From sequence record PZ452611.1: a stretch of DNA of 64,000 nt, one strand, 5' to 3'. Origin of the DNA: a phage. Below are positions 9,801 to 59,953 of this stretch, piece by piece. Numbering within the stretch: the first letter of the stretch is position 1; each line of letters starts with the position of its first letter. The notes beneath the pieces were generated by a model, which saw nothing but the letters and a program-made list of their open reading frames with translations, searched no databases and was not told the origin of the DNA. Position numbers and translations under genes: made by a program.

Positions 9801-12530
9801 ATAATTCCAGGGCCTGAAACTTTAGGTAACGCTGTCGACCCCTATATCATCATGAGTGATCTAAGATCGAACATGGATGGAACATCCATATCTATGCAAG
9901 TTCCGGTAACAAACGGATACAAGCGTGTTGTGATGATCATTAAGTGCGATCTGATAGGTAAGCAAGTTCTTGCAGAGAACGGAACTTCCACCCACCTATT
10001 TGAGACTGCTCTGCACTATCAGTTTGCTGATTCACCTTTTGCAGGGGATAAGAGAATATCTGACACAGACGCTGTGCGATGCAAGAAATTTATGCTAGGT
10101 GGTGGGTGGTGGTGGTATGAATTTGACTTAACAGACAAATTCACCGACACATCTAAAGTGGTGACAGGACTTCGTCTAGACCTGGGTGAGAACATGCATA
10201 AAAGTGTTTGTGATGGCACCTACGGTGATCCTACGGTATACTTGAAGTATGTTTCTTTTGAGCACCCTGAAGATGTTGTTTATGGTCCAAAACTGAGGCT
10301 GTTTGGCAATTGGATTGCTAAAGACAGAGAAGGGATGGGTAGGAAGGTAAGAGGCTTCCTGGTCGATGCTGGCACAGAGGATATGCTGGTGAATGCGGTG
10401 TGGCCTGAATTACCGGGAACTCAGTGGGACAATTCTGCTAAGTCTATAAACTGGTTCAATATCCACAGAGCTATGTGGGCAACTAACTGCTATCTGTGGA
10501 AAGAGTTGAATGACGGCGCTTTCGGGTTTACTGGTGGCAGAAGAATGGCAATCATTTGCTGGACAACGCTGCAGAGATGTTATGACCATGACTATGAGAT
10601 TGGAGGCAGGGCATGGAAAAATATAAGGGATAGAATCATAACTAACTTTGCAGATCCTAACGGTGGCGGGGCGTATGGTTTCGACTGCAGCAGACTTATC
10701 CATTTGAACGGATCTTCGGCCTATAAGAAAGAAGGCTACTCCGGGTCCATGATTGAATGGGGCTTGGTAAAAGATGCTCGTGTGTTGATGGGTCAGCAAC
10801 TTGCTGCTGCAATAGGACCGAACGCAGTACAATCTGTTAAACCAGCGTGGTTCGATATCCCATTATGGTCCTCTGGAACACCAGGAACTGCTGCAATCAA
10901 CCCTACCACTGGGGATCTGGAAATCTCCTGGGAGGACTTGAAGCAGGTTGGTGGCTGGGATAAGACAGGGTACCAGGTGCAATGGTGGAGAGCTGACGGA
11001 TCTTTAGCCGCTGAGGAGTTTGTTAAGGACAATTTCTACACCATGTCCTCTGCAAAAGCACAGGAATTGTTCGGTCAGGCAGCTCCGTCAACGATCACCA
11101 TGTCTATGTGCTGTAAAGACAACAGGACTGGAGCTTTGGGGCCAAGGGTTGCTAAGGTTTTCTCAGGTATTAAATGGAATCTCCCTGTTCAAAGTGTTTC
11201 ATGGAAGCAAATAGGTGATAACAAGCTGCTGGTTACCCCCGCCTGTCAGTTCAACGCAACTCTTAACGTTGATCCTGCTGTTGCGGCAAACTCAGCTAAA
11301 GCTTCTGACTTCTCTGTGTCTAACACTGCTATGGCAGATGTGAGGAAGATTGACACACTGAACGCCAGAATTACCTGTAAAAACACTTATGGCACATTCC
11401 AGATTATCAACAACTTCACAGATGCTGATTCTAAGGTAGTGAGGACAGCAAGCCAGACTCTGAGTTTAGGAACTCTGGCCTATGCGGCCCTGATCACTGA
11501 ACAGTCGGCAACACTCCAAGGAGGTGGCGTAGGTAAATCTATTGCAACACCAGTATGGAAGCCAAATGAGTGGGTTGTATTTGATCTGGCTGTTGACTTC
11601 TCTAGCGATAATAACTGGACGTGGGTAAGGAATTGCTTACCTCAATTGATGGGTGGTCCAAGCTCTGTCAGCGATAGCCACGATTCTACTGACCCCAGCG
11701 TGTTCCAGGTTGGTAAAACTCACCCAGAGACGGGAGCAACGTTGCCTGACAGGAAGTATGCTTTGGTTTGCATCTCTTACGGAAAAGCAGATGTCACCTT
11801 CTCAGGGACACACACTTATAACGGAACTTACAACTTCTCAAGGAAGTATAGTCTCAAAGCAGGGAACATTATAGACGAGGTTGGTGTGCTGTATAATCCG
11901 GGCAACGGCATAGGGATTGTTGGTGGTAAACTGCAGATGCAGGAACCTTCTATTACCCCTTCCAACGTAGCCGGGATTAGAAAGACTTGGGAAAGTAGTA
12001 ATACCAACATTGCAACAGTGGATGCCACCACAGGACTGGTAACATTTAAAGCTACTGGGAATGTCACCATAAAGTTTGTAGTTACTGATGATGCAGGGCG
12101 CAAAACGTCTTCAACATCTTTTACTGTCAAACAGATGGCACCACAGTGGAGAATGTGGATAGGTACAGCAACAAACGGGGCATACCCTAATCCGGCAGGT
12201 ACTTCTGGTATGAAGACTTTCTCTACAAGCAAACCGATGGAGTACGGCAGCGGTCCTAAGGTAGGGCAGATGGTGTACTTTGGTGCGTATATTCCTGAAA
12301 TTATAGGGCTTCCGAGAAGTCAGCTTCAGTTGCTGTTTGGGGCTGGTGTTGACGATCTTGCCACTTTCGGGTATAGCGACAACATCGAGGCTGCAAGGAG
12401 TTCAGGATGGGTAGGGTTCAGAATGGAGTCTGGAAAGGAAGGCAGGATTCTAGGGACAGCCTCTATAGGTGTTATGTTCCCTGGTGACCAGCAGTATCGT
12501 CTAGAAGCCTACGCAACCTTTTCTCGTTAA
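6894..12530 (+). CDS. large virion-associated protein with Ig-like (Big_2-type) domain; putative tail/adhesin protein
   Basis: 1878-aa ORF; C-terminal segment ...IRKTWESSNTNIATVDATTGLVTFKATGNVTIKFVVTDDAGRKTSSTSFTV matches bacterial Ig-like group 2 pattern; N-terminal region has repeated G-x-x-G beta-propeller-like repeats (tentative); follows fibre genes. Confidence 0.65.
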   Translation: MLPIPLLKLGRHFLDKRGGIKELAVLSYPIDNSDGTSNTVSYVNSLAILFDDGQLNITGYNRFGECRTGDLDTINYPNEAAWNVDHVWRADRAFVIRTFDNKFFYIGCTAGLIGSEAAGGNDVCVREWTPLPEQIVTGLHLDTHPERLVEVMGGVNNTVWVIAAPEADGMLHLYGSGNNTYGSLHVDKSQHATPVKIGETSESPETGPWKNPRINCEVHDNSVIFGGPNGFWIAGYDFLRNNSKNTLVYPAEHVTLDQFKGIPVGETWKGFMCGPNGAIIATERMHKPDDQQLVNVFYGQDVWGDDTWRSLNITYTHEVIMARGYGTSGIFFNNGTKQYRGFSRNLCNDIGAQSANNSPRANFIHYRALATAKFVEQTEPVSWTESVYFQGIHREGFLGTFCVVNGKLWWSGIPRGSFSGSNNLFGGRLNSQGFTEIPENWYKNVPVDSWGIEDIFDVNGVSNVSNIYIGDTVKMKLKPQPEGATFIIDKIELVNAAGTVVTDANYQFSTNWNHGGANEVVVTQYNRNINRRGLYSIKITYHDKHGTGRTYTTRTLNWNTIVPAYPSNGKWHTVGRNKQFHVNDTVYFGLNGTQPAVEGDTSYMVRLHRMDAGSVTYDVTQEIYDQRRNTYNNLVQTQAVWEFNPNGRGGKMLQVNEQNGTSLTVHEHPDPWPDPGKPHPGARTLKIVSHDVGYFGIRWEATVRYADGTTNNIGITLGGTSEDNSLKIAYTPRGISIDNMDVVRNGYGDVNVKVTLGEHLGGERIIMYAFDHDPRTNGTYANQAWSYLINAPEPNTKEFYYGMKRDVCKKTGTHDWIAICVKDERTAWDEPVNRWFIGIPTRSDKYVAEYIVCMGGTNLNMCWNEDVNKYSDYDYMRDYSCNLWFNQTTGYPPRQARVNPAIFTDTQVFLTKQANEVQTFKNKYDPNKWFYNCYGAFFWGPGELPGGGSCFEAATYASDRFMGQVKKYKIIPGPETLGNAVDPYIIMSDLRSNMDGTSISMQVPVTNGYKRVVMIIKCDLIGKQVLAENGTSTHLFETALHYQFADSPFAGDKRISDTDAVRCKKFMLGGGWWWYEFDLTDKFTDTSKVVTGLRLDLGENMHKSVCDGTYGDPTVYLKYVSFEHPEDVVYGPKLRLFGNWIAKDREGMGRKVRGFLVDAGTEDMLVNAVWPELPGTQWDNSAKSINWFNIHRAMWATNCYLWKELNDGAFGFTGGRRMAIICWTTLQRCYDHDYEIGGRAWKNIRDRIITNFADPNGGGAYGFDCSRLIHLNGSSAYKKEGYSGSMIEWGLVKDARVLMGQQLAAAIGPNAVQSVKPAWFDIPLWSSGTPGTAAINPTTGDLEISWEDLKQVGGWDKTGYQVQWWRADGSLAAEEFVKDNFYTMSSAKAQELFGQAAPSTITMSMCCKDNRTGALGPRVAKVFSGIKWNLPVQSVSWKQIGDNKLLVTPACQFNATLNVDPAVAANSAKASDFSVSNTAMADVRKIDTLNARITCKNTYGTFQIINNFTDADSKVVRTASQTLSLGTLAYAALITEQSATLQGGGVGKSIATPVWKPNEWVVFDLAVDFSSDNNWTWVRNCLPQLMGGPSSVSDSHDSTDPSVFQVGKTHPETGATLPDRKYALVCISYGKADVTFSGTHTYNGTYNFSRKYSLKAGNIIDEVGVLYNPGNGIGIVGGKLQMQEPSITPSNVAGIRKTWESSNTNIATVDATTGLVTFKATGNVTIKFVVTDDAGRKTSSTSFTVKQMAPQWRMWIGTATNGAYPNPAGTSGMKTFSTSKPMEYGSGPKVGQMVYFGAYIPEIIGLPRSQLQLLFGAGVDDLATFGYSDNIEAARSSGWVGFRMESGKEGRILGTASIGVMFPGDQQYRLEAYATFSR

Positions 12531-45977: not shown

Positions 45978-46303
45978 CAGAGATCATCATTTCAACTGCA
46001 GGGTATGTGTTCCTGACAATCATTGCACTGACTATTTTGGTGACAGTGTATGGGTTTGTTATCCTTCCTATCCTTGAGACATTTAGTTTGTGTCGGTGTT
46101 GGAGAAAAGCTTACGGTCCACAACCATGGAAGGACTGGCCCCACCTAGTGCGCTTAGCGTTCTCTTATGCTTACGATCACTCCAGCAGTGCATGCATAAC
46201 CGGATACCACGCCCACAACTGGAGCTGGGAAGGGTTGAGGAAATGGAATGTTACAAAGACCATACCTCTGCGCATGTACAAACCTAAAAACAAAGACAGC
46301 TGA
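45974..46303 (+). CDS. membrane protein
   Basis: 109-aa ORF; N-terminal two hydrophobic helices (IIISTAGYVFLTIIALTILVTVYGFVILPIL). Confidence 0.45.
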   Translation: MTEIIISTAGYVFLTIIALTILVTVYGFVILPILETFSLCRCWRKAYGPQPWKDWPHLVRLAFSYAYDHSSSACITGYHAHNWSWEGLRKWNVTKTIPLRMYKPKNKDS

Positions 46304-46599
46304 TACTTGAAAATTCCTGGCATATCAAGTATAAGGGGGATTTCTAAAATGGATTTCCTCCTTTTGATATTTCACCGGGCTGGATATTTTAAAATTCTTA
46401 GAAAATCAGAAAATGGATCGAAAACTAAAATGGATTTTTTCAGCACAGGCGCGGAAAATTGTGCCAATCTATCTAGCCGTTTGCACCATATTCGAGATCA
46501 CCGTTCCAGATTTCCCACACATACACACCTCTCCACCATACCTTTCTCCACTCACTCTTAGTGATTTATGACGGAAAACCCATCGCTATCAGTGAGTTG

Positions 46600-46800
46600 C
46601 GGTACAATTTTTCCAGTACTCGATCTACTTTTCATCTCATGGCTTGGATTTTCTGAAAATTTTTCTCGATAAATTTCTCAGTACTCGATCTGTTTTTCGT
46701 TTTCTGAATCGGATTTTCTGGAAATCGTTCCGGAGCTCGACCTGAAATTTTTGGGGACGAAATCGATTTTTCGTTTTCAGAAATGGATTTTTAAAATTTC
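46600..46800. repeat. tandem degenerate ~55-bp direct repeats (3 copies)
   Basis: units containing tt(c)cagtactcgatct...ttttc...ggattttctg(g)aaa repeated head-to-tail; no ORF >60 aa with RBS. Confidence 0.6.
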
Positions 46801-46899
46801 TATATGGGAATATTTTATGGGATACTGTTTTATAGGAAATTGTTACGGAGGGTAATTAGCATGCTAACTAAATTTATGAAATGCGAAAAGTTCTCATTT

Positions 46900-47230
46900 A
46901 GAATTTTGAATGATAATCATTCTCGTTTGCAGAATAACGGGCACCCCCGGTGATTGTCTCCCGGCCCCTACTGCCCCGGCTTGTTATTATAGTAACACAC
47001 AGGACAAAGAAAGCAAGAAGTTTTTGCATAAATTTTTAGACGATAATGATAATCGTTCTCATTTTATGCAGCGCCCATCCCCGGTGGTTGTCTCCCCCGT
47101 CACCGGTGCCTGCCGTCCTTTCGATAGGTATATTGTGCCACCTGGCGGGGCCGCTGTCAACACTTTTCAAAAAATTTTTCTAACCTGATGCGCTAACCGC
47201 TGCAACCTGGCGGGGCCAGCCTGGCAGGAC
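46900..47230. repeat. direct repeats in non-coding region
   Basis: two copies of ~70-bp unit (gataatc(g/a)ttctc(g/a)ttt...cccc(c)ggtg(a/g)ttgtctccc) ~130 bp apart, followed by three acctggcggggcc motifs. Confidence 0.5.
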
Positions 47231-47318
47231 CTAACTGACCAGGTAGGAGAGAATGAAGGCTTATAATCTGGTGGGCCTGTGCTATAGGATAGGTAACAAT
47301 TGAAGAGGAGGTACAAAA

Positions 47319-47501
47319 ATGAAAGGTAATATGATCCCCCTGGAAAATGTAGCGATTAATGACGCTGAGGCTATCGCCCTGGTTGAAAAGGCTATGGCGG
47401 GAGCGTTGGAACATAAAGAAGAGTACGAAAAATGGTGGTTAACCTGGCGGGGGCGGCGGCTGGAGAATTCTGCCCAAAAAATAATTTTAACTAATGGTTG
47501 A
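47319..47501 (+). CDS. hypothetical small protein
   Basis: 60-aa ORF, RBS gaggagg 7 nt upstream; first gene of the early-type cassette region. Confidence 0.45.
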   Translation: MKGNMIPLENVAINDAEAIALVEKAMAGALEHKEEYEKWWLTWRGRRLENSAQKIILTNG

Positions 47502-54001: not shown

Positions 54002-54055
54002 ACCTGGCGGGGCCGAAAAGGCCCCAATTATGAAAATAAAGAGAGGTAAATCATC

Positions 54056-55343: not shown

Positions 55344-55478
55344 ATGAAAAAGATAATCATCACCTTGGGGATTGTGGTGGCAATATTGGCGCTCTTCCCC
55401 CTTATGGTTAGGTATGTGCTGATCAGTGTTATTCTAGTGGTCAGCGATCTGGTGTTATATATTAACTCATTGTTTTAG
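55344..55478 (+). CDS. small hydrophobic peptide (44 aa)
   Basis: ATG directly after stop of upstream gene; MKKIIITLGIVVAILALFPLMVRYVLISVILVVSDLVLYINSLF; coordinates approximate. Confidence 0.3.
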   Translation: MKKIIITLGIVVAILALFPLMVRYVLISVILVVSDLVLYINSLF

Positions 55479-55694: not shown

Positions 55695-55726
55695 AACAGG
55701 GCTTGCAATGGTCCTGTTTTTTGTTA
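55695..55726 (+). terminator. putative intrinsic terminator
   Basis: AACAGG...CCTGTT hairpin followed by TTTTTTGTT. Confidence 0.45.
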
Positions 55727-55805
55727 TACTTATTCCACGGCAGGCACCTGGCGACGGGGGGAGACAATCACCGGGGGGTGCCTGTCATATAAGAACTATA
55801 AAAAC

Positions 55806-55834
55806 CGTTGACATCTGCCAGGGGGTGGGGTAAC
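55806..55834 (+). promoter_or_regulatory. sigma70-like promoter
   Basis: TTGACA - 17 nt - TAACAT followed by hairpin GGGCA-aaag-TGCCC. Confidence 0.45.
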
Positions 55835-55890
55835 ATTTATCTTGAAGGGGCAAAAGTGCCCACACAACAACCAGAAGAGAGGAAAACATT

Positions 55891-56163
55891 ATGTCAAGCT
55901 GGATTAATCAAGAAGTCGAATCACGTTTTAATGCTATTTGGGATCTCATCGAAAAAGAGGACGGAACATCAAGCCCTTACCTCAATAATCTTGAATTCCA
56001 TTTTGTGGAAGCGATGAACGCAGAACATGATCACGAAGGTGGTGCGGACGAGTTCGCTAAAAGGTATGGCTTCAACAATGCCAACGAAATGATCGAGGCG
56101 GTTGTACTCCAGGCTGAGGAAGATTATCAATTAAAAACGCTTGAATTCTGCCGCCGCAAGTAA
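55891..56163 (+). CDS. hypothetical acidic protein
   Basis: 90-aa ORF, conserved UTR context. Confidence 0.5.
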   Translation: MSSWINQEVESRFNAIWDLIEKEDGTSSPYLNNLEFHFVEAMNAEHDHEGGADEFAKRYGFNNANEMIEAVVLQAEEDYQLKTLEFCRRK

Positions 56164-57396: not shown

Positions 57397-58329
57397 CTGT
57401 ATTTCTCCTACCACAAACGGCCCAGCCTGGCAAGTGGAATAATTGACTAGCCAGCAATTACCAACACTGTACAAATATACATATAAAATAACTATTGCAT
57501 AATCTTTCATCTTGTGGTAGCAGGGCCATTTTTACACGTTTTCCTTCCAAAATTGCACGTAATGCAGCTATTGCATAAAATTTAACCTGATGCACATCTT
57601 CAATAGCTTGTCAACAACTAAAAATCTTTATAAGTCATACACTTACATAACCACAAAAGCGTGTTCTACGTGAAAAATCGAGTATAACTATAGCCGCCAG
57701 ATCTCAGAATTTACGTACGCTCACCATTCTATAGTCTGCTAAGTATTTATTCCAACCATAGAATAACAGAATAGTCAATACCTGCATAAAATAATTATTC
57801 GTGTAAACTGCATAACATAAATCAGCCGGGGTGTCAACATTTTTCGTAAACGGCTCGAAATTATCACTGTGAGCTATCATAAACAGAGAAATCTTTAGTC
57901 GTCTAATGTTTACTGTACGTTACTATACTAACTGGAATCATTAGATGACTAATAAAAAGATAAGAAATCATTAACAATGCAATTGTTTTATTCATAACAA
58001 TAAGGCAACTATGCAAACGAATGGCATGGCGCGACGGAGTCGCGACATAATATAAAAGCAGTAACCATCACCCCCGTGATAGTTTGTCTGCAAACTATTA
58101 ATCAGATCATAGTTGCCTTGTATTTAGTTAATCATGACATAAACTCAGGCATAGCCTTCGTCTCGAGGATGTTAACAAGCAAGGCAACTATAGATCTTCT
58201 AATAGTTGCCCTGCTTTTATATTATGTCATAGAAACACCCGAAGGGGTGACCAAAGGTCACCTGGCATAGCCAGTGAAATATTGTAAACAAGTTAATTAT
58301 TATCATGCAAACGAATGGCATGGCTTATC

Positions 58330-58500
58330 ATCTCTGTGTAAATAGTTTGTTTGTAAACAGTTTATACGTGAACAGTTAGCTGTGTAAACTATCAGGCATG
58401 TAAGCTATTGAGCATGTAAACAGTAAAGGTCGTGAACAGTAAGCGAGCGAATAGTAATGGCGTGAACAATGACAGCGTAAACAGTCAGGCATGTCAATTA
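58330..58500. repeat. iteron-like array (about 11 direct repeats, period ~15-16 bp)
   Basis: GT(A/G)AAC(A/T)(G/A)T cores (gtgtaaatagt, ttgtaaacagt, cgtgaacagt, gtgtaaactat, atgtaagctat, atgtaaacagt, cgtgaacagt, gcgaatagt, cgtgaacaat, gcgtaaacagt, atgtcaatta) at regular ~15-16 bp spacing in a non-coding stretch. Confidence 0.65.
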
Positions 58501-59953
58501 TGTTCAGTGTGTCACCATTATGTCATATTGTGTCAGACAAGTTTTTCTCCTCTTTGTCAAGTGCTGCATGAAAAATTTACAATCTGGTATGGTAGCATTT
58601 TTGCGGCCCTGTTTACATTCAGTACTGTATGTATAAGCCTTGTTGTGTGGGCGCTTAGACGTCTAGACGGTTGGAAGTCTGCAGGTCAATATCTAATCTA
58701 TTGGTTGCTAACTATATCCCACACAAATAGTAAGAAATGCAATTGTTATATGCGTAAACTGTAACTCATGTTATCAATCCCTGTATGGATCGCCAGTGGT
58801 GCGCATAATAGGTATTATGTTAAATTGCCAGTAATGATAACTATTCTCACAGTGATAGGTATTCTCATTCAACCCCACAAGATAGGTTGCAAATGTTGTG
58901 CCACTGTGTGAACGGCCTCGCCTATTAATTTGCCTCACTGCCTCGATATTTGAGAATTATTATAAGAATGAGAAGTATTCCCATTTCGTCCGCCTGGCAG
59001 CACTCCTGTAGGTCAGGTCAAAATCGGGAGAGAACTGGACCTGTTCAGATATTTCTGGCTGGCTCTTCAGGTCTGTGTGGGAAAAGCCGACCCCTCCGGC
59101 GGCGGGGAGGGGGTCAATTAAAAAATTTACGGGGCATATGAAGCGCTCTTCAGGTAAGGCATGTATTATGGGATGAAACCCTCTTCAGGAAATGATATTT
59201 GTGGGTGTGATATTTGCTGGAAAGCTAGATATGACTGGACTCCTGGCGGGGCAGGGGTAGTACAGACAGGGGAAATATGGGGGATGTAGTTGGGTAAATT
59301 GATCAGGCAGGTAGAGTATGGAATATGTTACGAGTATGTTAAATATGGAGGGTGAATATCTGCAGGATTTGTGTGTAAAATCAAAGACTTAAGTGGTGTT
59401 GTGGTATTTTCTATAAATAATTCAAGTTTAATAGGTGATATTTGTCCCTATCCACTTTGTGTGGTAAACAGATTCAGATGAGATTGGTTTACGAGTGTAT
59501 ACATAATATACAAATTAAAGATACAAGAAACCCCCCTCCCCCTTCGGCTACCATTCACCTTTTCCTCTGACTGGTACTTAAACACTTATTCAGACTCTTC
59601 AGGTTATCACCCATATATCATATGGCAGTGACTGGTGTCCTCCGGCCCCTCTTTCGTCACCCGTCCGCTTCGCCATGCTAATGCCATAGCCAATGGTTCG
59701 GTTGTTCACCCTGTTCACTCAGGTGTATCTCCATACCCCTTCAAACCGAAGAGAACAGAAAACCCGAATTACTCGGTAAAAGAAAAGAGAAGAACTTAAT
59801 TTTATCAGGATAAGCAAGAATGTCAAGGCATGACTGCTCACTAAACAAGCAAACAGTCATGTGTGGGAGGTAAGTGATTGTGGTGGTAGGAAATTTAGTT
59901 GAAAGATGTGTTATAGGTGCTCCCAGCACTTTAGCCGGGTAGCTAATTGTGTG

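Follow-up and report, generated by a model that had tools for sequence, protein, structure and literature searches.

Locus and coding status

The window analysed here is the whole 64-kb stretch of phage DNA in sequence record PZ452611.1, and the element in question is a non-coding region within it (46304-47318), the right half of which carries two tandem copies of a cassette composed of predicted promoters, a hairpin-forming element and a palindrome resembling the operator of the host iron regulator Fur. The window was identified as Escherichia phage rV5, or O157 typing phage 5 (TP5), a lytic phage of the genus Vequintavirus; in a sequence search, positions 46200-47400 were 100 % identical to KP869103 and 99.9 % identical to NC_011041, and the region was also present in 113 further records at 80-95 % identity. 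The ATG that follows the region (47319) belongs to the leading gene of a long array in which small genes share one orientation, and the genes upstream, in the same orientation, encode a T7-like DNA polymerase, a primase/helicase and methyltransferases. The flanking open reading frames (ORFs) gave no Pfam match, and no tRNA or tmRNA gene was found in the window. The region is also present in sixteen GenBank records under the name 'Campylobacter phage' (host C. jejuni); the six such records listed are about 92 % identical to rV5 and have genomes of vequintavirus size, and the host label looks doubtful.

Two genes, gp194 and gp193, are annotated inside the region in the rV5 record and none in the 100 % identical TP5 record; the positions are likewise empty in the V18, nimi and PDX records. 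The gp194 frame diverges after about 30 codons and meets a stop at 32 codons in three of six Vequintavirus relatives. Truncated in two of these relatives and intact in four, gp193 lacks a ribosome-binding site and has its ATG within a putative Fur box. A 43-codon ORF on the minus strand is intact in the Vequintavirus relatives, with all amino-acid differences non-synonymous, and is missing from distant relatives, which retain the DNA motif and no ORF. A coding role for gp194, gp193 and two minus-strand ORFs was rejected on these comparisons, and the whole stretch was accordingly treated as non-coding; the view of an earlier note on this DNA, that it holds no credible ORF, was thereby borne out. 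Elsewhere in the rV5 record, a 285-bp 'Rho-independent terminator' (NC_011041, 116195-116479) nearly coincides with the coding sequence gp191 and is probably an annotation slip.

Conservation

Among seven vequintaviruses, three blocks (46350-46450, 46650-46800 and 46900-47150) were 0.88-0.99 identical, which equals or exceeds the coding flanks; the intervals 46450-46650 and 47200-47300 were variable and contained indels. In distant blastn comparisons only positions 46869-47017 (approximate limits) were conserved, at 80-88 %. This core recurs in Seunavirus (GAP31, PVP-SE1, 4MG), Certrevirus (phiTE, CR3), Mydovirus, Henunavirus, Phapecoctavirus and others.

Cassette architecture and predicted promoters

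The features of the region as a whole and of its right half are as follows.

46304-47318, no strand: whole non-coding region, from the rV5 gp195 stop codon (46301-46303) to the ATG at 47319
46880-46898, no strand: weak Fur-like box 0, AATGCGAAAAGTTCTCATT; GAP31 has the near-perfect palindrome AATGAGAAGCATTCTCATT at the same place
46906-46935, plus strand: predicted rightward promoter P_furA, TTGAAT-18-CAGAAT, overlapped by Fur box A; below the scan threshold
46909-46927, no strand: putative Fur box A, AATGATAATCATTCTCGTT, palindromic; the 19-mer from 46906 has four mismatches to the consensus
46928-46987, minus strand (G-rich strand): hairpin copy A, outer stems AAUAAC/GUUAUU and GGGCA/UGCCC, loop with GAGACAAUCACC
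46989-47016, minus strand: predicted leftward promoter P_L(A), −35 TTGCTT (47016-47011), 16-nt spacer, extended −10 TGtTACTAT (46997-46989); read from the sequence
47024-47053, plus strand: predicted rightward promoter P_furB, TTGCAT-18-GATAAT, overlapped by Fur box B; deduced from the sequence, below the scan threshold
47042-47060, no strand: putative Fur box B, GATAATGATAATCGTTCTC, 17 of 19 positions matching the E. coli Fur-box consensus
47064-47120, minus strand (G-rich strand): hairpin copy B, loop GAGACAACCACC, z = −2.0
47132-47160, minus strand: predicted leftward promoter P_L(B), TTGACA-17-CACAAT with TG, called by the scan tool (10/12); its spacer is the first ACCTGGCGGGGCC
47161-47318, plus strand: variable leader with indels, including a deletion of about 45 bp in two relatives; it closes with AAGAGGAGG, the ribosome-binding site serving the gene at 47319
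47205-47217, plus strand: second ACCTGGCGGGGCC, directly following a −35-like TGCAAC

The right half (46880-47160) is built from two tandem cassette copies, A and B, each consisting of a predicted leftward sigma-70 promoter, a G-rich hairpin of about 50 nt that the leftward transcript would form and a Fur-like palindrome overlapped by a weaker predicted rightward promoter; the palindrome lies some 50-70 nt downstream of the predicted leftward start. The two direct repeats of about 70 bp described in the earlier note were confirmed (46909-46928/47045-47064 and 46942-46962/47076-47096, 90 % identical and 134-136 bp apart), and they are the tandem copies A and B of this one promoter-hairpin-Fur box cassette.

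Alignment A1 was made from fourteen copies, taken from the strand opposite that of the flanking genes. The promoter has a −35 of the form TTGnnn, a spacer of 16-17 nt and a −10 of the type TAnnnT, mostly preceded by TGn; it is followed by a G-rich segment of about 50 nt with the invariant loop (G)AGACAAnCACC, by ATTCTGCAA and then by the palindrome ATGAGAATGATTATCATT. The −35, the spacing and the −10 of the leftward promoter are kept in all 14 copies, and the equivalent promoter of GAP31 was called by the scan tool (TTGATC-16-TATTAT with TG). For P_furA, TTGAAT is found in nine of ten orthologues and CAGAAT in seven, in addition to variants. Weak by consensus as these rightward promoters are, the Fur-like boxes would lie between their −35 and −10 hexamers, the usual position of Fur on a promoter it represses: at classical Fur-repressed genes the Fur box overlaps the −35/−10 interval. 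The sequence CCCCGGTGATTGTCTCCC occurs three times in the window, against none expected.

A second copy of the cassette is also found in CR3 and in Certrevirus-like contigs; in the paralogous copy of one such contig (L157), promoter, hairpin and Fur-like box again stand together. Within the window, a third copy of promoter and hairpin (copy C, 55735-55795, plus strand; TTGCAA-17-TATACT) runs in the same direction as the genes, and its Fur box has decayed. Copy C (element span 55695-55840) is followed by a second promoter, TTGACA-17-TAACAT, and then by an ORF at 55891-56163.

Three ACCTGGCGGGGCC motifs had been placed before the first early promoter. Two exact copies do lie inside the region (47140 and 47205), but the third (47442, one mismatch) lies outside it, within the first downstream ORF. 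With another exact copy at 54002 and a match with two mismatches at 59241, there are five matches in the window versus 0.56 expected. From the sequences, we take the motif to be a GC-rich spacer following a −35-like hexamer, as in the predicted leftward promoter 47160-47132 and in phiTE, where a like spacer is found within TTGACA-ACCTGGCCGGGCCGGGC-CACAAT. At 54002-54030 of the window, the copy of this motif forms a hairpin, GGGGCC-GAAAA-GGCCCC, between two genes.

Predicted Fur boxes

Sites were compared with the 19-bp E. coli Fur consensus GATAATGATAATCATTATC, a palindrome that can be described as 7-1-7 or as three hexamers. Box B is the only site with three or fewer mismatches in 64 kb, where 0.06 would be expected, and box A is the most conserved segment of alignment A1 across genera. 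When box A and its flank were searched against 5,426 E. coli genomes, the best match was situated 38-63 nt ahead of the start codon of mntH; GATAATCATTCTCGTTTGcaGAATAAC in the phage and GATAATCATTCTCGTTTG-GAATAAC at mntH share 18 consecutive bases plus GAATAAC. The sequence upstream of E. coli mntH is, we assume, the Fur operator of that gene, and mntH is reportedly repressed by both Fur and MntR. In all relatives examined, at least one site with no more than five mismatches to the Fur consensus occupies the same place, and usually there are two that overlap; by eye, up to four palindromes are seen in phiTE and anhysbys and two in GAP31. The palindrome is accordingly described here as a predicted Fur box, an operator for the host iron regulator. 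Because the motif is near-invariant across phage subfamilies while its surroundings diverge, we infer a conserved host ligand in preference to a co-evolving phage protein. A further Fur-like match, at 55346, lies in the start of a coding sequence and was judged to be due to chance.

In the mntH promoter the Fur box is followed by the palindrome AAACATAGCAAAGGCTATGTTT, presumably the MntR operator, whose ATAGC/GCTAT half-sites also occur in the outer hairpin stem of most genera (ACATAGCGGG...CCCGCTATGT). This sharing may be a coincidence, or it may be a trace of descent from a host mntH-like promoter.

A survey of IMG/VR with a Fur-box 16-mer yielded 122 distinct sites; some of the contigs may be prophage together with flanking host DNA. 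The match extends to the full 19-bp palindrome at 57 of the 122 sites, and at 49 there are two or more boxes within 300 bp, the background being 0.15 per 600 bp; on these two counts, viral DNA seems to contain Fur-box arrays widely. Many unrelated viral contigs were noted to bear the palindrome AATGA(T/G)AATCATTCTCATT in arrays (L014, L041, L053, L055, L085, L090, L108 and others).

Hairpin-forming element

All copies of the hairpin fold with an outer stem around the invariant loop GAGACAAnCACC. The stems vary from copy to copy (AUAGCGGG/CCCGCUAU in phiTE, GGCAGGCACC/GGUGCCUGUC in rV5 copy C, GGCGGGCA/UGCCCGCU in locus L155), many of their G-U pairs fit the G-rich strand only, and 83-86 % of stem cells are paired, versus 22-55 % when the partner is slid. 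With a covariance model, hairpin copy A scored 42.7 bits (E 4e-7); for copy B the match was partial (47070-47110, 16.6 bits, E 0.38). RNAalifold returned only the Fur-box palindrome and a 3-bp stem from the raw alignment. A search of the window against Rfam 15 gave a best match of 21 bits versus a gathering score of 126, and nothing relevant was found in three relatives. Judged by its sequence, the element is a conserved, promoter-proximal hairpin-forming element that is likely to act as RNA.

A second non-coding element, absent from the window, was observed in relatives just to the right of the Fur-box cassette (L005, 2640-2800; L003, 2640-2810; L004, 2603-2773). It is very strongly conserved, with a near-invariant GTTAGCCCCGCCTTT(T/A)CGCCGTGGGGTGG in nine of 11 relatives, and occurs in 226 phage records (Seuna-, Mydo-, Certre-, Phapecocta-, Justusliebig- and Avunavirus), none of those listed having an RNA or regulatory annotation there; no Rfam family matched it. 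Its leftward promoter is strong, its stems show some compensatory changes, and a hairpin resembling a terminator is present on the opposite strand. The element could represent an RNA transcribed leftward or, alternatively, the 3′ terminus of a rightward small RNA of about 200 nt repressed by Fur, and the rV5-like phages seem to have replaced it by cassette copy B. A Pfam search of the flanking and relative-specific small proteins returned only DUF7170, in some relatives, and homologues of the genes specific to those relatives were not found in the window.

Left half of the region

Towards gp195 the region contains the following features.

46335-46445, plus strand: conserved block I with a cluster of (A)TGGAT(T)TT motifs, AAATGGAT at 46347, 46411 and 46428
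46446-46605, no strand: variable spacer, identity 0.57-0.79 with small indels, which breaks the annotated gp194 frame
46603-46961, no strand: AT-richest DNA of the 64-kb window, minimum GC content 0.26 in 150 bp
46606-46735, plus strand: two iteron-like direct repeats of about 65 bp, with the core GTACTCGATCT (46616, 46681), a T-tract and GGATTTTCTG(A/G)AAAT (46646, 46711); conserved in vequintaviruses
46745-46791, plus strand: third, degenerate repeat, 74 % identical to the reference; the CTCGA core at 46732-46742 is not kept in relatives
46856-46867, no strand: perfect palindrome of 12 bp, TTAGCATGCTAA, occurring once in the window; relatives keep it except at one variable position

The three head-to-tail repeats of about 55 bp in the earlier note are real but weaker than described there: the copies start at 46606, 46671 and 46745, are spaced by 65 and 74 bp and are 74-75 % identical to the reference copy, and the third is degenerate. 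Conservation in relatives, which the note had proposed as a check, holds for the first two repeats with their core, and fails for the core of the third. The array thus comprises two good 65-bp repeats and a degenerate one with the AT-richest DNA adjacent; Tandem Repeats Finder called no array there and reported only two trivial rows of 12-15 bp. The block 46748-46830 is 0.91-0.99 identical in vequintaviruses. Analogous G(G/T)(T/A)CTCGATC repeats are present in GAP31 and phiTE, the shared core being CTCGATC, and Phapecoctavirus has AT-rich direct repeats of other sequence at the same place.

The repeated aaatggat motifs are striking in their clustering, with four of the five copies of AAATGGAT in the 64-kb window falling within 46347-46788, but their total is not above chance (five versus 4.0 expected). 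Identity over 46350-46449 was 0.93-0.95 among the seven vequintaviruses. In the AT-rich block the T-tracts of the plus strand are mostly spaced by multiples of some 10 bp, the gaps being 11-21 bp; this phasing is our own reading.

Position in the genome

Vequintaviruses have defined direct terminal repeats of 458-459 bp (PMC7471380, PMC6563267). Window positions 58994-58510 match, in reverse orientation and at 92-93 % identity, both the 459-bp terminal repeat annotated in Gotham (1-459) and the start of EdH4, which places the physical end about 12 kb to the right of the region. The region itself lies at about 11.1-12.3 kb, or 8.2-9.1 %, from the left end (EdH4, 11115-12317 of 136031). The records of 122 relatives begin at many different places, and the region is one contiguous internal piece in the relatives listed and in 113 of the 122 records. 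Comparison of the region with the terminal non-coding region revealed shared 11-mers only. The non-coding stretch around the probable end (about 57400-59600) contains the second AT-richest DNA of the window. In a transposon screen of the vequintavirus Bas54, no insertions were recovered in an intergenic region of about 2 kb that is different from 46304-47318; it is probably this terminal non-coding stretch.

Proposed Fur-gated promoter switch

With moderate confidence, we propose that the region is a conserved cis-acting control hub, namely a face-to-face promoter switch gated by host Fur and located on the inner border of the block of terminal early genes. The observations behind this proposal are sequence matches, conservation and the repeated cassette architecture. 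They support the suggestion in the earlier note of a regulatory region: promoters are predicted on both strands, the palindromes resemble Fur operators, and the blocks are conserved at least as well as the coding flanks. When iron is present, Fur-Fe2+ would occupy the boxes and the rightward promoters would be off; the leftward promoters would then dominate, and their transcripts would enter the AT-rich DNA with its repeats. Starting from P_L(B) and P_L(A), leftward transcription would cross the Fur boxes and then reach the palindrome at 46856, the AT-rich DNA, the 65-bp repeats and the (A)TGGAT cluster. Once Fur was iron-free, or titrated by replicating phage DNA, the rightward promoters would open toward the small-gene array, and their transcripts would collide with the leftward ones and be antisense to them.

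Several points weigh against this proposal. Box A departs from the textbook 19-mer at four positions, and box 0 is a weak match; the −10 hexamers of the rightward promoters (CAGAAT, and GATAAT, at 18-nt spacing) are modest and fall under the scan threshold, and the conservation of the rightward promoters could instead stem from their overlap with the hairpin stem and the box. A scan of rV5 found no terminator for either the leftward or the rightward transcript. Copy C has promoter and hairpin with only a decayed box, and the true ligand of the palindrome could be a phage-encoded protein. Covariation in the hairpin was assessed on a MAFFT alignment and on a model-fitted alignment; the observed pairing was reached by 62 of 500 and 338 of 500 shuffles, and one to three pairs change on both sides. 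The stem may thus be conserved as sequence rather than selected as RNA structure, and the wording 'hairpin-forming element' was adopted because covariation did not exceed the shuffled controls. Fur binding, promoter activity and the RNA, and with them the logic of the switch, are all predicted from sequence.

Alternative explanations

That the region encodes the small proteins gp194 and gp193, or is a functionless, decaying gene remnant, is very improbable: both ORFs are annotated in the rV5 GenBank record and gp193 is intact in four of six relatives, but the frame of gp194 is broken, gp193 is cut in the other two and has its ATG inside a Fur box with no ribosome-binding site, the corresponding annotation is empty in TP5, V18, nimi and PDX, distant relatives keep the motif without an ORF, and neutral decay is excluded because conservation exceeds that of the coding flanks. 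As little credence can be given to a genome end, a terminal-repeat boundary or a packaging site inside the region, the first and last of which the earlier note had considered with regard to the long non-coding stretch and its repeats. This reading found no support, since the Gotham terminal repeat maps to about 58510-58994, as does the start of EdH4, and the region is contiguous and internal in relatives and unlike the terminal non-coding region. Genome end, coding DNA and neutral DNA are essentially excluded as readings. A transcription-primed origin, in keeping with the secondary origin considered in the earlier note, is a possible, if less probable, alternative to the switch: G-rich transcripts of the tandem leftward promoters would invade the adjacent AT-richest DNA and prime or open it for the T7-like polymerase and primase-helicase of the phage, a process for which the Fur boxes and the opposing promoters would be no more than modulators. 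In the primary origin of T7, an AT-rich stretch follows a tandem pair of promoters, and T4 oriF and oriG combine a promoter with an unwinding element. The rV5 region resembles them in its tandem promoters aimed at the AT-richest DNA and in its T7-like replisome, and differs in that its promoters are of the host sigma-70 type and are joined by iteron-like repeats, Fur boxes and an opposing promoter; the T7-type arrangement of promoters leading into AT-rich DNA with an initiator-less replisome is found here in architectural features only. The origin is a coherent idea because rV5 has a T7-like DNA polymerase and primase/helicase and lacks a recognisable initiator. It gains from the position of the AT-richest 150 bp (GC content 0.26) directly downstream of the leftward promoters, from the closely spaced T-tracts, from the 65-bp iteron-like repeats with a core conserved across genera, and from Phapecoctavirus, which keeps the layout of AT-rich direct repeats beside the boxes while the repeat sequences differ, as iterons usually do. 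It is weakened by the lack of an adjacent initiator gene and of DnaA or integration host factor (IHF) consensus sites in the region, by GATC that is not enriched (4 per kb versus 5 per kb in the window), by a cumulative GC skew with a local dip and no inflection, by a leftward RNA that is A-rich over the AT block and would form weak RNA-DNA hybrids, and by the leftward unit of relatives, which also contains a small protein gene and the second RNA element and is more operon-like than primer-like. The rV5 paper could not place the origin (PMC3606486), which also counts against it.

A Fur decoy is unlikely. In such a scheme the boxes would soak up Fur as phage DNA amplifies and derepress host iron uptake or iron sparing for iron-dependent ribonucleotide reductases. 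Multicopy Fur boxes do derepress the Fur regulon in the FURTA assay. Two to four high-quality boxes per genome in many genera, box arrays in unrelated viral contigs (the 49 multi-box sites of the survey) and four strong boxes in the non-coding injection stop (iss) region of a T5-like phage fit the idea, and so does the fact that rV5 encodes NrdAB and NrdDG (PMC3606486). Yet good boxes number only two in rV5, while a cell contains several thousand Fur molecules, and box, hairpin and promoters are strictly coupled in position in paralogous cassettes, which argues for regulation in cis over mere copy number. Still less probable is an analogue of the T5 injection stop region, that is, a protein-bound, repeat-rich stretch marking the inner edge of the first-entering DNA or of a terminal pre-early block. 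The region's distance of 8.2-9.1 % from the left end is close to the first-step-transfer DNA of T5, 7.9 % (bioRxiv 10.1101/866236), the genes between the end and the non-coding region are transcribed toward the end in both groups, and both non-coding regions are conserved, about 1-2 kb long and filled with repeats and predicted sites for host proteins. Against this, the window has no homologues of T5 A1, A2 or other pre-early proteins, the terminal repeat of rV5 measures 459 bp versus about 10 kb, there are no DnaA boxes in the region, and the resemblance is one of position and composition only. The origin, Fur decoy and T5-like boundary readings are compatible with the Fur-gated switch and not mutually exclusive.

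Parallels with known systems

One of the IMG/VR matches to the Fur-box 16-mer is the T5-like phage DT571/2, a close relative of DT57C. The DT57C boxes lie in a 1.9-kb untranslated gap between gp011 and gp012 (L160, 6829-8725; in DT571/2, L044, 6700-7000), which contains four matches with one or two mismatches to the palindromic consensus, together with DnaA boxes; about nine half-box repeats are seen in DT571/2. We take this gap to be T5 Repeat Region 3, the injection stop region. The published analysis of Repeat Region 3 covers DnaA boxes and not Fur (Davison 2020, bioRxiv 10.1101/866236). The rV5 region is like Repeat Region 3 in being a conserved, untranslated stretch of about 1-2 kb with direct and inverted repeats, some 8-9 % from the left end, that bounds end-directed early genes. 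It is unlike it in that the two phages belong to unrelated families and share no proteins, and the T5 region lies inside a terminal repeat of about 10 kb and has DnaA boxes. It is tentatively suggested, as a possibility we regard as doubtful, that these unrelated lytic coliphages (rV5-like and T5-like) both place arrays of Fur operators at the boundary of the terminal early block, and thereby read or manipulate host iron at the start of infection. The route could be a Fur-gated switch, titration of Fur, or DNA-bound Fur that pauses entry or organises the genome.

With the Fur operators of Enterobacterales the region shares a 19-bp AT-rich palindrome of the GATAATGATAATCATTATC type, box A being near-identical to the sequence upstream of mntH; unlike those operators, the rV5 box stands in a lytic phage, in tandem in gene-free DNA, with an opposing promoter and a hairpin, and no iron gene follows. 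Coliphage 186 pR/pL and P2 Pe/Pc likewise have convergent promoters about 60-90 bp apart with an operator on one, interference and antisense 5′ ends, but these lysis-lysogeny switches use phage repressors, whereas rV5 is lytic and its presumed repressor is a host metal sensor. Like the put RNAs of HK022, which are promoter-proximal RNA stem-loops, the hairpin-forming element, a putative structured RNA, stands right behind early promoters in several copies per genome; it differs in having no sequence or Rfam similarity to them, and of its three copies in rV5, two are directed away from every gene.

No description of Fur boxes in rV5 or other lytic phages, of the cassette, or of a Vequintavirinae origin or transcription starts was found in the literature searched, most subscription papers being outside it. 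The parts are of known kinds, namely a Fur operator, sigma-70 promoters and iteron-like repeats. The apparent novelty lies in how they are combined, in their conservation in hundreds of genomes of lytic phages and in the resemblance to T5.

Implications

Two doubtful ORF annotations of the reference record (gp194 and gp193) are corrected by this work, and two unannotated conserved non-coding motifs, common to hundreds of phage genomes, are defined. The rV5-like phages are broad-host-range candidates for therapy and biocontrol; if the proposed Fur-gated switch is correct, the dynamics of their infections would depend on the availability of iron, which is scarce in the gut and in infected tissue. 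If the arrays shared with T5-like phages are what they are tentatively taken for, they could represent a general, undescribed layer of phage-host coupling, and the palindrome arrays in many other viral contigs may belong to it.

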